A program made the translations under genes and the position numbers. A DNA stretch of 64,000 bases from Naegleria gruberi (lineage: Eukaryota). This document shows, piece by piece, positions 20,736-26,760 of this stretch (the stretch's first letter is position 1; every line of letters starts with the position of its first letter). The notes below the pieces were generated by a model, which did not search any database, had not been told where the DNA came from, and worked only from the letters and a program-made list of their open reading frames with translations. The DNA lies in NCBI GenBank assembly GCA_000004985.1, contig GG738849.1; one strand, given 5' to 3'.

Positions 20736-23393
20736 ATGGTTTGGTATCTTTAGAGATGCGATCTTGGCACTTTTCAATCATATGAGCACATGGCTTATCT
20801 TCAACACCTTCTGTTTTCTCAATATGAATGGATTGATATTGTTCAAAATATTCAAGGGCCTCATTAAAGTGACCTTGTTTAAAGCTTTCAATTCCCTTAT
20901 TGTAAATTCTCCACTTGTCCACTTGCTCTTTTTGCTGCAATTCATACATCCCTAAGTAATTATGATATTCACAAATGAAAAAACAATATCAACTTACATT
21001 CATCCATGTTAACTTGTTTTGAATCTCCAACCTCATAAATTGGTGTCTTTTCACCACTCTTTGATTTTCTATTGGACATAATTGGTTCAAATGTATTTTC
21101 ATTCACTAATTTCTTCCATGATACCAATCTAGTCGAGTGAACATCAGCAATTTCCTGGTAAACATGATCTGTGATTAAAAAGTTAACATTAAGCTTGGAA
21201 GTTAAACTGATTAAAAATTCAAGATTTTCTTGATAACTGCCTAAAATTGAGAAGGTTTTAACATCTCTAGTACCAACGTTACCAACTTTGTTTTGCTGTG
21301 AAACCATGGCACAAAGGAAAGATATGGATGAAGAACATTTCAATTTTTGTAATTGACCTTGAAGTTGTGTCATGCAGAATAAACCTTTTTCTTCTGCTTT
21401 GGCGCTTTCTGATGTAGCATTAAAACTAAGAATGATGGTACTCTTCTCAAAATTGCCAACCAATGCATTGTTTAAACTTGCATGTCTTTGAATTACTGTG
21501 AAAATTTCAGTAAGCACGACAGTAATATCATGTTCTTTCAATTCATTAAGTAGTTCGTTGAGCCCTTCGAAATATATCATTGCACTCACCACCCTTCTCT
21601 TTTCCAGACCTAATTTAAAAATGGAATTATGAAAACCAGAAGAATGAGCTCCAATCTTGCTATGATGAGATGACTTTGAGAAGGAAAGAGATGTAAACTT
21701 GTTACTCGAATGATGTTTAGATTCTTCGTGTGAACGTGTGTCATTACTATCCAATTTGCTCAACAAGTGAGGTGGAAGGAAACTTCTAAATAATTTCATC
21801 TTTTTCACCATGAACAATACATGTTCTTGGATTTCAGAAACTTCCTTCAATGGTGATGCAACCTTCAAGCCCTCAATTTCGTCCAATTGCATTTCTGAAA
21901 TGAATTCAAATTGGGTCATTAACTTTTTGAAAGGTGTAACAATTCTTGTACTGAACCAAATACCTATCAAAATTGCAGAGATTGTAATAATGACACTCAC
22001 AATAACGGCAACTATCACTGCAATTACAATGGAAGATATGTAGTTCCACTGTGGCACTGCAAAGATTATCATCCAATTCAACAATGTTGGAGTGCACAAT
22101 CTATAGAGTCCAACATAATAAGAACTAACTGTTGTGAATTTGAAAGTTGAACATTTCATAGATTTGAGATCATTCCCTAAAGATTCATAAACAGCAGATC
22201 CAATATCTCTCACTTGTGGAATATCAAAGTTCTTAACAGTCTTTCTTGTTTCCTTTCCACTTTTATCCCATTCAGAAACTGGAATATCAGGGTAGTTGGC
22301 TAATTATTATTGAAACAGTTTAAAACAGGAATATTAAAAAAACATACTTGCAATAATAGCGTCAGTTTTGATCTCAATAACAACTGCCAGTGAGTTCATA
22401 ATATCACTTGTAAATTCAAGCAAGTATTGGGATAGAGAGTGAACTGTCAGATCAATAGCAAAATACCAATCAAAAGTGGATGAGCCAGGAACTGAGTGAA
22501 CACTTACACATGAGAACCAAACCCACAGTGGATATCCTGAATCTGTGTAAGAGTCAGAAAATCCGGTTGAGTTGAGTAAGTTTTGGGCTTGTTCCACTTC
22601 AGTTGAAAGATCAAATGTTGGTTTAATCTTATCCCATGTTGGACCTTTTCTAACACAGCTAGTGTGAGAGGAGTCAAAATCACAAGTTTTGTAATAAGCT
22701 CCTGTTGAATTAATCACAAATAATGATAGATACATTTCAGGTGATTTAGCAGCTCTAGATTGACTGCTAGTTATACCCTTATTACCTCCCAATACATCTC
22801 CAAAATATGAATTGATGAAAAGACCATTTATGTAAGCTTCCTGTGATTTATAGGTCATGAAGGTCTTGTCAATTAACCACTCGTCACGATTATAATAATC
22901 CATATCATTCCACACAGAGTTCCTTACAGTTTCAGTGGCCATTGCTACCTGTTGTTAGGAATTTCCACATGTTTGTCAATTTTACACTAAATTCAAACCG
23001 TCAACAACAAACCTTATTCATGGTAGAGTCTATAAATTCAGTCATACTAGAGAATTGAGACTCCATTAAACTATTACTCACAGATGTAACACTCCCAGCA
23101 AAACTAGATACCCAAACTATGGTTAATAAGATTACAGAAACCACCAAAACAAACAATAATAAGAGTATTAAGCTTGATTTGATGGTTATTTTCTGAGAGG
23201 AACGCTTATTTTGTTGTTTGATTTGAGCACCATCATCTGACGAATTATCATCAATTATTGGTTCCAAAGGAGAAACAGCACTAATAGTAAATCCATCATT
23301 TGATTCGGTAAGGTGATTTTTGGATGTTGGTGTCCTATTTGTTGTATATACAGATACATGTGGGGGCAATGGTGTAACCTTAGAAGCGACCAT
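20725..23393 (-). CDS. Receptor-type membrane protein with divergent class-III nucleotidyl-cyclase homology domain, 4 exons (836 aa)
   Basis: Exons are 23393..23013, 22948..22348, 22299..20998 and 20951..20725, with introns of 64, 48 and 46 nt. Exon 1 has donor AAG|GTTTGT. All frames were verified across the junctions. Layout: an N-terminal region, TM1, an extracellular domain, TM2, then a cyclase-like domain (RRVVSAMIYFEGLNEL...GNVGTRDVKTFSILGSYQENLEF). The canonical metal-binding Asp residues and the GDxY motif are replaced. Confidence 0.6.
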
Positions 23394-23880: not shown

Positions 23881-24933
23881 TTATTGCATGGAACAAGTCT
23901 TCTTTTCACTATTCTTTACAACTTGCTTAAATGAAGGATCATTCCACACACAGATGGACTTGACCATCACTTCGTTCAGCTCCCTGATTCCAGTACCTTT
24001 CAGAGCGCTTGTTTCGGCAAGTAATTTTCCCTGTTCAAAACTTTGAATCTTTTTATGTTTTTTGATAAGTAATTCTCTGGTAAAGATTGGATCATCTCTA
24101 AAATCAATTTTGGTGCAAACAAGTGCAATTGGAGTTGTTGAACAATGATGCCTTAGTTCATTATCCATAGATGATTCTGAACAACAACTGAAACTCAAAA
24201 AGAATAAATCAGTTTGGGGATAAGAAAGTGGACGTAATCTGTGTATGATAGATAAATTCATTAAGTTCCAAAATTTAACAATATTATTGCTTTTTGATAA
24301 ATAAATAACTTCCCTAGGGAAGAAGGATAAATTACAGCACGCAGGGGGAGAAGTTCTTTTGCTTCCTTCCACATCATAGCCAACATTCAACCCAAAACAA
24401 CATCTGTCATTTACTTGAAGTTGTTGGTACATTGAAGAACAAGTGGTAATTGATACTTTGAACACCCTGTTTTTCTCTTGGTCTAATAAAGACTTGTATT
24501 GTTAATAAACTTCTATCTATAATAAATCATGAAAAAAAATCATACAACACCCTCAGTTGGTAGGAGGGGGTTTAAGACGGCCAAAAAGTGTAATTTATCC
24601 TTCTTCCCTTACCTATCAAAATCTTTTGAAAGGTCAATCAAAAATGTTTTGAATATTTTTTAAAATTACTAACCTTCTTGTCCTATGGTATCCCACAATC
24701 CAATACTTAAAGTTTTTCCATCATAGAAAAAATTGTATTGCTATCAAAAATTGTTGGTATATATTCGTGTGGAAAGGAATCGGTAGTTAGAGATATCCAA
24801 AGACATGTTTTACCCACAGCTCCATCACCTTATTTAAAATAATTAATTGGCATTCAATATTGAATAATAAATGATGACACTCACCAACTTGAACAATTTT
24901 AAAAGAATTTGCTGAACTGTTTTTCAAATTGTA
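23881..24933 (-). CDS. Rho-family small GTPase with CAAX box (CSMQ), 4 exons including a 10-nt micro-exon
   Basis: Exons are 24933..24885 (SFKIVQVG), 24828..24674 (GDGAVGKTC...EYIPTIFD...GLWDTIGQE), a micro-exon 24622..24613 (ATTTTGATAG, encoding DFD) and 24238..23881 ([11 protein letters not shown]...TKIDFRDD...CSMQ). Exon 2 has an apparent 1-nt frameshift in a homopolymer (A6 at + 24727..24732). There is no in-frame ATG upstream of exon 1; see the fusion finding. Confidence 0.7.
24317..24608. mobile_element. MITE-like element inside the Rho intron: 20-bp perfect terminal inverted repeats flanking about 252 bp
   Basis: + 24317..24336 (gggaagaaggataaattaca) is the exact reverse complement of + 24589..24608 (tgtaatttatccttcttccc). 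The element lies wholly within the 374-nt intron (24612..24239), which is by far the longest intron in this gene; the others are 51-56 nt. Confidence 0.4.
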
Positions 24934-26027
24934 CTTGAGAATTTCTTCTTTAGGAACGTAGATATCACTTCCACATTGTGACAAACCCTCAATATAACTG
25001 GTTCTATTATGGTGATCTCTGTTGGCTCATTAACTTGCTTCTTTTTGTCAATCTTGTGATAAGTACCACCAAATACAAAGTAATTCATAGCAATACTATC
25101 ATCTTCATTGGTCGCTTGGAATGGAACAGTTGTATGAAAGACGGGTCCAACATCTTGGCTTGTAAAAGTTTGAGAAAGTGAGTGAGTGTGGCTTACATCC
25201 CAACCATTCTTGATATTAATTAAATCAATATAGATACAATCCAAATGGTCAATTCTATCATTACAACCTCCAATGGAGTAAAGTCTTTTACCATTTTCTG
25301 ATTTTTCCAACACCAATGAATGACCAAATCTTGGAGCAAAGCCATCAAGTTCAGAAATTAATACCTCCGATTGACAAGTACCCTCTTTCACATCCAGAGT
25401 AGACAATTTAATCTTTACAAAATCTTTAACAAGATCAGTAGCCGATTTACCACCCAAAATATACCAATCACCAGTTTCTTCATCCAAAACACTAGCATGA
25501 TAATATCTTCCCATAAGTTCAATGCTCAATTCCATCAATTTCCATTCTCTACTCTTCAAATTGAAAATAAACAATTCATTCGATGGGAAACTGTTGTTAT
25601 CATCATACCCACCAAACACAACCAAATAATCACCATAAATAGTTGCTGATTGACCATAACGTGGAGTGATAATCTCATCACCACTAGGCTCCAGTAATCC
25701 CCACTCAAAAGTATCAAATCGATACGACCAAACATCATTATGAAAACCATTTGATTTCCCGCCAAAAATTACCATCTCATCACTACAATCATTCGATTTT
25801 CTTTTCACTAGACACGAGGAGTGGAAGTTACGAGCACTTGGTCCCCTATTATGTATTGTCTTGTTTTCCCACTTTTGTGAGGAAACATCCACTTGAATGA
25901 GATCGTTTACAAGTAGTTCGGAATTGACAAAGCCTCCGAAAAGATAAACTTTATCGTTATGAAAGATACCACTGTGACCAACACGAGAGGTTAATTGACC
26001 GAGGGGCAACGAAGATGTTAATAACAT
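24924..26027 (-). CDS. Kelch-repeat beta-propeller protein (367-aa ORF; possibly the N-terminal part of a Kelch-Rho fusion)
   Basis: ATG at 26027. There are five to six kelch blades (GHSGIFHNDKVYLFGG, VIFGGKSNG..DVWSY, VVFGGYDD..ELFIFN, YILGGKS, YSIGGCND). The last 63 nt (24986..24924) overlap Rho exon 1 on the same strand in another frame. Confidence 0.75.
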   Translation of the reverse strand: MLLTSSLPLGQLTSRVGHSGIFHNDKVYLFGGFVNSELLVNDLIQVDVSSQKWENKTIHNRGPSARNFHSSCLVKRKSNDCSDEMVIFGGKSNGFHNDVWSYRFDTFEWGLLEPSGDEIITPRYGQSATIYGDYLVVFGGYDDNNSFPSNELFIFNLKSREWKLMELSIELMGRYYHASVLDEETGDWYILGGKSATDLVKDFVKIKLSTLDVKEGTCQSEVLISELDGFAPRFGHSLVLEKSENGKRLYSIGGCNDRIDHLDCIYIDLINIKNGWDVSHTHSLSQTFTSQDVGPVFHTTVPFQATNEDDSIAMNYFVFGGTYHKIDKKKQVNEPTEITIIEPVILRVCHNVEVISTFLKKKFSSTI

Positions 26028-26105: not shown

Positions 26106-26760
26106 ATGACAACAACTCTTGTACAAGACCCTATTGTTTGGGTTGACATGGAGGTAAGATAATAGCCACTGACCACAATTCACACAATTAATTCTAAATA
26201 GATGACAGGATTAGATATTGATTCCGATCACATTTTGGAAATTGCAGTCATTATTACTGATGGTAATTTAAATATTATTGCACAATTGGATTCATTGATT
26301 GTTCATCAGAGTGACTCTGTTTTAGATAATATGAATGATTGGTGTAAACAGCATCATGGTGATAGTGGTTTGACTGCTGCCGTTCGAAAGAGCTCATTCT
26401 CCATTCAGCAAGTTGAGGATACAGTCTTGGATTTTGTTAAACACTATGTTGCATCGGAGAGATTGGCTCCATTGGCTGGTAACAGTGTTTATTGTGATAG
26501 ATTATTTATGAAGTATGTTAATTTCTTTATTATTTTGTTAATAATATTTTAATTATTTTAGAAAGGAAATGAAAAGATTAGATGAATATTTGCATTATAG
26601 AATTATTGATGTTTCTTCAATTAAAGAGCTTGCAAGAAGATGGTCACCTGAAACTCTTACCAAGGTTGTAAAGACTGGAGCCCATAGAGCACTTGATGAT
26701 ATCAAAGAATCTATTGAAGAATTGAAAGTTTACAAAAAGCATCTATTTAAATTGGAATAA
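26106..26760 (+). CDS. ORN: Oligoribonuclease (REXO2/Orn family 3'-5' exonuclease), 3 exons (185 aa)
   Basis: Exons are 26106..26153, 26202..26512 and 26562..26760, with introns of 48 and 49 nt. The protein shows the DEDDh motifs: WVDMEMTGLD, HQSD...[20 protein letters not shown] and [16 protein letters not shown]...HRALDDI. Confidence 0.85.

Follow-up and report, generated by a model that had tools for sequence, protein, structure and literature searches.

One question raised by a 64,000-nt stretch of the Naegleria gruberi genome (contig GG738849.1, assembly GCA_000004985.1; hereafter the window) is whether an open reading frame (ORF) for a Kelch propeller and the Rho/Rac GTPase sequences that follow it on the minus strand (23881-26027) form one working gene. 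In a preliminary description of this DNA it was suggested that they do, by means of a 53-nt intron whose removal would create a Kelch–Rho fusion. Based on comparison with intact relatives we conclude, with a probability of roughly 0.88, that this locus is a non-processed, decaying copy of a Naegleria gene with the order Kelch propeller, F-box, helical linker and Rac domain with a CAAX motif, that the 53-nt pair of splice sites is coincidental and that no functional Kelch–Rho fusion is made from it.

The Kelch ORF lies at 24924-26027 (-), as first described, and encodes 367 aa. It was found to be 100% identical to the annotated N. gruberi protein XP_002681858.1 (EFC49114.1, NAEGRDRAFT_63109, UniProt D2V2T2; P0001), which comes from an 850-kb scaffold, and the ORFs that neighbour it are exact matches to other N. 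gruberi proteins. The G+C content of the window is 34%. A search with the conceptual fusion protein revealed proteins that combine the Pfam domains Kelch, F-box and Ras in one chain in N. fowleri, N. lovaniensis, Willaertia magna and Acrasis kona, as well as Kelch–BTB–Ras variants in Amoebozoa; a protein equal to the spliced Kelch–Rho fusion was not among the matches listed. The sequences and their alignment with the window protein (A1) show the order of the family, in which a six-blade Kelch propeller is followed by an F-box (LNDDIxRxILSFL...LQLVSKxLRICQL), a helical linker of about 100 aa that ends in (F/Y)xTxEEILxYP and a Rac-like GTPase with CAAX. The intact proteins are about 700-770 aa long, and in three of them (P0002, P0004 and P0135) the F-box is above the Pfam cut-off of 20.5 bits. 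Pfam Kelch families match the window ORF with up to 148.8 bits, its six GG-containing blades form an N-terminal propeller that aligns with those of all family members (A1), and its identity to them in this part is 36-49% (tblastn).

All close homologues carry both domains in one protein, the Kelch propeller at the N-terminus and Rac with CAAX at the C-terminus, as a search for such architectures, proposed at the outset, was meant to reveal. The combination of Kelch and Rho had been described as one not known from established families; the relatives with Kelch, F-box and Ras domains, and the published record given below, do not bear this out. The suggestion that the Rho sequence is not a free-standing gene stands in so far as the Kelch and Rho parts belong to one gene, while the proposed way of joining them, by an intron, does not. 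Two sets of relatives are compared here. The first is found in N. fowleri (FDP41_007326; P0002, 731 aa) and N. lovaniensis (C9374_001827, C9374_004444 and C9374_009358; 749-767 aa), where 'F-box domain-containing' proteins share the family architecture and show 36-42% identity to the window in the Kelch part and 36-43% in the Rho C-terminal part (tblastn). Unlike the window copy, these genes are intact, and their Rho-domain introns are placed differently, after GKT(S/C) and DYDRLR. The second is an N. gruberi paralogue, XP_002672610.1 (EFC39866.1, D2VTI8), a 700 aa 'rho family small GTPase'. In common with the window copy it has six Kelch blades at the N-terminus, 49% identical to the window ORF when its cluster representative P0008 is compared, and a Rac domain that ends in CAAX. 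It differs from the window copy in being intact: it has an F-box of 22.7 bits, a linker of ~115 aa between propeller and GTPase, the CAAX motif CLVQ and both Rac segments that the window copy has lost, and it is free of frameshifts. Two introns interrupt its Rho domain, after ..V.IG and ..GQ, at positions that coincide with those of the window copy or are no more than one or two codons away, and a metagenome copy at least 90% identical to it (L005) has its GTPase-region introns after ...VVLIG and ...AGQ.

The segment that joins the two domains in the intact relatives, ~150-200 aa of F-box and helical linker, is missing from the window copy. With nine homologues as tblastn queries, the Kelch, P-loop, switch II and C-terminal Rho segments were found in three different minus-strand frames, and homologue residues ~395-545 had no match anywhere in the 64-kb window. 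Pfam detects no F-box in the window ORF and alignment A1 has a gap at the same segment. Only the last ~35 residues of the conserved linker tail, AEK..IE..(F/Y)xTxEEILxYP, survive, and they are read in the Rho and not in the Kelch frame. The open Rho-frame stretch starts at 25026, and the last ~100 nt of the Kelch ORF, read in another frame, lie within it. It was pointed out before that Rho exon 1 has no in-frame ATG and that it overlaps the end of the Kelch ORF on the same strand; both observations hold, and the open stretch contains no Met. The deleted length is about 110-130 codons and not a multiple of three, so that the Kelch part is out of frame with the linker tail. A second N. gruberi protein, XP_002668324.1 (EFC35580.1; P0126), which is partial (416 aa) and encoded on a scaffold of 7,486 nt, shows 98% identity to the window Kelch over 335 aa, with 8/335 residues different and one 2-aa indel. 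Unlike the window copy, this sister copy runs on after ...KKKQVNEPT into FNIEVFDNVMNDDIFRLVLSFMTITDLCKLELVSKKLRICKL..., an F-box, exactly where the window has its deletion junction; after NEPT the window copy reads EITIIEPVILRVCHNVEV... up to a stop. The F-box of the sister copy scores 19.6 bits, just below the Pfam cut-off.

The proposed intron has to be judged against this background. According to the preliminary description, a donor AGG/GTTTGT (donor G at 24986) and an acceptor CTCAAG/ (exon resuming at 24933) bound 53 nt, and their use would join ...EPVILR to YNLKNSS.... The sites are indeed present, and the GT...AG boundaries keep the frame. There are 49 in-phase GT...AG pairs with lengths of 40-300 nt that are able to connect the Kelch and Rho frames, and therefore finding one such join is expected and is not above chance. 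The donor had also been compared to that of the cyclase gene in the window; GTTTGT is plausible there, but of five donor-like hexamers counted none is as frequent in the window, where GTTTGT occurs 54 times. The A+T content of the candidate is 64% as against 69-90% in three homology-supported introns nearby, whose donors are GTRAGW or GTATGT. Of the 1775 peptides in a six-frame translation of the window, a profile of the linker tails of 11 homologues, which includes no GTPase residues, matched the Rho-frame peptide alone (E 1.3e-4); the match aligns residues 1-35 with 25026-24922 and spans the entire candidate. In the same way, BLASTP to an N. gruberi paralogue from the literature table gave an unbroken alignment from RDHH... 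through the P-loop. Because the homology runs through the 53 nt in both comparisons, they are former coding sequence, and what was taken for an intron shows neither an above-chance signal, nor an intron-like composition, nor a non-coding interior. We infer that no splicing takes place at these sites and that the GT...AG pair is a coincidence.

The Rac part carries lesions of its own. If the proposed splice is combined with the canonical Rho introns, translation stops after 403 aa, at a TAA (24709-24707). The cause is a frameshift in Rho exon 2, where ...IPTIFDS and the conserved segment downstream lie in different frames; the predicted CAAX-Rho product of ~535 aa is not encoded. A tiny or alternative intron that would bridge this frameshift was considered and rejected, as the sole candidate (G/GTAAAA...GATAG/) removes KTCL...IPTIFD and still leaves the wrong frame. 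The exon 2 donor GAA G/GTTAGT (24673) is in phase 1, and with the only acceptor, CACAG/ (exon from 24238), the junction to exon 3 is out of phase even once the T-run of exon 2 is repaired. Exon 3 has two in-frame deletions, one of 7 codons at 24160/24159 (xxKWxPE, helix alpha3) and one of 9 codons at 24016/24015 (RKxGCxxYx, strand beta6). Both segments are present in every relative and in human Rac1 (alignments A1 and A3), and tblastx against N. fowleri breaks at these two positions, with gaps of 21 and 27 nt on the N. fowleri side. The C-terminal CAAX motif is retained (CSMQ and a stop at 23895-23881; the relatives end in CYLQ, CLFQ, CLVQ or CKVQ), and a hand-repaired translation scores 97.5 bits with Pfam Ras. 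Nevertheless there is no continuous Rac/Rho frame with G1-G5, as the sequence is divided over three frames, has a premature TAA and lacks two conserved segments. The three frame breaks and the other lesions are of the pseudogene type, and the retention of intron 1 and the expansion of intron 2 mark the copy as non-processed.

These results also bear on the original idea of a functional Kelch–Rho–CAAX fusion of ~535 aa, produced by removal of 24986-24934, which we regard as extremely improbable. The GT and AG sites that join the frames in phase, the relatives that combine Kelch and Rho in one protein and a similar AAG/GTTTGT donor that may serve the adjacent cyclase gene speak for such a fusion. 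However, its spliced ORF stops after 403 aa, a second phase break follows at exon 2/3, conserved Rac segments are deleted, the supposed intron is homologous to the coding linker tail, the join is not above chance, and curators who inspected the gene models called the gene a putative pseudogene.

This call is found in a study in which the Ras-superfamily genes of N. gruberi and N. fowleri were curated (Herman et al., 2021; BMC Biol 19:142, PMC8296547). Its Additional file 10, Table S8, gives the annotation, corrected sequence, ID, a 'putative pseudogene?' column and additional domains, and on the N. gruberi sheet XP_002681858.1 is listed as 'Rac', putative pseudogene 'yes', with the additional domain 'BTB'. 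In the same table XP_002668324.1 and XP_002672610.1 are each given as 'Rac; Kelch, F-box', together with several further corrected Kelch/F-box Rac models. Combinations of F-box and Kelch with Rho-family GTPase domains are also described in Additional file 4, where GTPase-dependent ubiquitination was suggested (Herman et al., 2021). The architecture and the pseudogene status of this gene are therefore already published. The 'BTB' label could not be reproduced, as Pfam gives only Kelch repeats in the window protein, and it is probably a labelling slip for Kelch. A 'BTB' entry is also found in Table S8 for the corrected XP_002672362.1 model.

Several points weigh against the pseudogene interpretation. 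The single-base frameshift of exon 2 adjoins a T6 run, where a sequencing error is possible in principle. The sister copy XP_002668324.1 was compared at the protein level and may be either an allele or a very recent duplicate. We infer, rather than observe, that the 53-nt sites are not spliced, so that they might still be used, and the neighbouring cyclase gene plausibly uses a GTTTGT donor, according to a provisional gene model. Finally, the Kelch ORF is open across 367 codons and keeps all family-invariant residues (A1), which may mean that it is expressed as a Kelch-only protein or that its decay is very recent.

The first two of these points would fit a locus that is intact in the organism, with lesions that are artefacts of assembly or sequencing, a collapsed F-box and linker and a true gene like XP_002668324.1. 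One frameshift does adjoin a homopolymer, and a 98%-identical copy with an F-box does exist on the scaffold of 7,486 nt. Such an explanation, however, would require at least six independent lesions of several kinds to be false (the deletion of ~350 nt, the 1-nt shift, the loss of ~10 nt, two in-frame deletions and an insertion of 294 bp with perfect inverted repeats), and the 8/335 differences and the 2-aa indel show that the two copies are distinct sequences. The neighbouring oligoribonuclease gene has a separate 98% copy as well, which points to a real second haplotype or duplicate and not to a collapse, and we consider an artefact very unlikely. This second oligoribonuclease copy is XP_002668076.1, on a scaffold of 1,669 nt. 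Two versions of the region, ~2% apart at the protein level, are therefore present in the assembly. This suggests either a second haplotype that was left unmerged owing to the structural differences or a segmental duplication of recent date.

The open Kelch frame raises a different possibility, in which the Kelch-only ORF is a retained functional gene, a propeller without F-box and GTPase that could serve, for example, as a substrate decoy for the intact paralogues, so that loss of function would be confined to the Rac half. The 367 open codons in a genome of 34% G+C, the preservation of all invariant Kelch residues and the annotation as a protein by the genome project are consistent with it, and since the ATG is only 78 nt from a divergent oligoribonuclease gene, the promoter region is probably still there. 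Yet a very recent deletion, as suggested by the 98% identity to the sister copy, would leave the frame open and the residues conserved just as well, and we find this possibility unlikely, if the least so among the alternatives. A more specific version of it, to which we give only a slim chance, is that the deletion allele still has an effect: a 367-aa propeller that lacks the F-box, or a 403-aa product of Kelch and a P-loop stub made through the cryptic 53-nt sites, might be expressed and act as a dominant-negative decoy for the substrates of the intact receptors. If this were true, the locus would be a snapshot of a domain loss that converts a GTPase-coupled E3 receptor into an inhibitor.

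For the decaying copy that we favour, the lesions read as follows. Through an internal deletion near 25020 the F-box and most of the linker were lost, with a change of frame. As a result, the Kelch frame runs into a fortuitous stop at 24924, which gives the annotated 367-aa Kelch-only protein XP_002681858.1, and the Rac part is left without a start codon. The other lesions of the Rac part (the frameshift in exon 2, the loss in exon 3, the two in-frame deletions and the 294-bp element) may have been acquired later or may already have been present. At the start of exon 3 ~10 nt appear to be lost, most simply by slippage between ATTAC repeats (G/AT TAC [GAT AGA TTA C]GT CCA, with the lost bases in brackets), and we suggest slippage as the cause. 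The coordinates of all segments are collected in Table 1.

Table 1. Segments of the decaying Kelch–F-box–Rac copy in the 64-kb window and the evidence for each.
Feature	Position	Strand	Evidence and remarks
Kelch beta-propeller coding segment, six GG-containing blades	25020..26027	-	Pfam; 100% identity to P0001; tblastn; 98% identity to P0126 up to ...KKKQVNEPT; intact part of NAEGRDRAFT_63109
Deletion junction (near 25020): F-box and most of helical linker lost (about 110-130 codons), frame shifted	25014..25031	-	tblastn gap; A1 gap; F-box of sister copy; linker tail from 25026
Out-of-frame tail of Kelch ORF	24924..25019	-	Made by the deletion; no counterpart in homologues (A1); P0126 departs exactly after NEPT, into FNIEVFDNVMNDDIF
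Linker-tail remnant in the Rho frame, without ATG	24922..25026	-	Tail profile of 11 homologues, E 1.3e-4; BLASTP from RDHH...
Proposed 53-nt intron GTTTGT...CTCAAG	24934..24986	-	Chance GT-AG pair within former coding sequence; 1 of 49 in-phase pairs
3' part of Rho 'exon 1', ending at donor GTGAGT	24885..24933	-	Intron position as in XP_002672610.1 / L005 (...KVVLIG/)
Genuine 56-nt intron GTGAGT...AAATAAG between KIVQVG and DGAVGKTC	24829..24884	-	Restores VG/DGAVGKTCL; 79% A+T; paralogue intron at same position
Rho exon 2: P-loop, switch I, DTxGQE	24674..24828	-	Frameshift near T6 run 24727-24732; premature TAA 24707-24709
Expanded intron 2, 435 nt	24239..24673	-	52 nt in intact paralogue; donor GTTAGT, acceptor CACAG
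294-bp element with perfect 21-bp terminal inverted repeats AGGGAAGAAGGATAAATTACA / TGTAATTTATCCTTCTTCCCT	24316..24609		Repeat search: 21-nt arms, 100% complementary
Rho exon 3 remnant ...TKID...ETSAL...CSMQ and stop	23881..24238	-	Out of phase with exon 2; without DYD region; two in-frame deletions

What the intact members of the family do can be proposed from their domains. They may be membrane-anchored, GTPase-coupled substrate receptors of ubiquitin ligases of the SCF type, in which Kelch would bind the substrate, the F-box would bind Skp1 and the prenylated Rac domain would serve for anchoring or regulation; such a role in ubiquitin ligation would be analogous to that of RhoBTB with Cul3. 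In concept, RhoBTB of metazoa and Dictyostelium RacA is the closest characterised analogue (PMC4931677). As in the present family, a Rho GTPase domain is fused to an adaptor of a cullin-RING ligase, and some members, such as RhoBTB3, have a CAAX motif. In RhoBTB, however, the GTPase stands at the N-terminus, with two BTB domains and a BACK-like region (Cul3) behind it, whereas the family described here has the order Kelch, F-box (SCF/Cul1 type) and Rac. Membership of the window copy in RhoBTB was rejected, as Pfam gives no BTB domain in the window ORF and the domain order is reversed.

As a dead gene of a known family, the locus itself has little import past annotation hygiene. It does demonstrate how little an in-phase GT...AG pair between neighbouring ORFs says in favour of a fusion gene, and how fast such a question is settled once paralogues are compared. 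The family is of more biological interest, since the coupling of Kelch and F-box to a prenylated Rac domain suggests, as far as domain content can tell, a GTPase-coupled ubiquitin ligation. It is widespread in Heterolobosea, with similar fusions in Amoebozoa, and its existence was already reported by Herman et al. (2021).

Other comparisons of the locus were less informative. Synteny was not detected between the window and the N. fowleri and N. lovaniensis loci (L001-L004), where tblastx matched only the gene itself, so that no positional orthologue was identified. A profile of the F-box and linker (A2) matched five Willaertia proteins only and not even the sources of its own query rows, and it says nothing about the distribution of the family. 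Intact Kelch–F-box–Rac genes were also found on two contigs (L005 and L006; 33-34% G+C) of the ENA metagenome assembly ERZ929261 (run ERR1078381), which look like sequences of N. gruberi or a very close strain. The product of L006 has few differences from XP_002672362.1 as corrected by Herman et al. (2021; Table S8), over the part of that model shown there. In the Kelch part the window DNA is just 67-70% identical to these two contigs, and no alignment of the introns was possible; a match of AATTTTGGAA at the 3' end of intron 2 in this alignment was dismissed as chance.

The expansion of intron 2 contains the 294-bp element of Table 1, which resembles a miniature inverted-repeat transposable element (MITE) that has jumped into the intron. 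The pattern of its arms (20 nt searched) has 2 matches in the window as against 0 expected by chance, and no second copy of the element was found within the window.

Two neighbouring genes deserve mention. Downstream, in the dCache/cyclase-like gene, a candidate intron of 63 nt at 22950-23012 (-), AAG/GTTTGT...CCTAACAACAG/, joins ...EFIDSTMNK to VAMATETVRNS... in frame and contains a CTAAC branch-like motif; based on this candidate, GTTTGT donors may be genuine in the N. gruberi genome. On the other side, the ATG of the Kelch ORF (26027, -) and that of the oligoribonuclease/REXO2-like gene NAEGRDRAFT_30577 (26106, +) are arranged head-to-head at a distance of 78 nt, and the two probably share a promoter region. 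NAEGRDRAFT_30577 extends over 26106-26760 (+) in three exons, with introns at 26154-26201 and 26513-26561.

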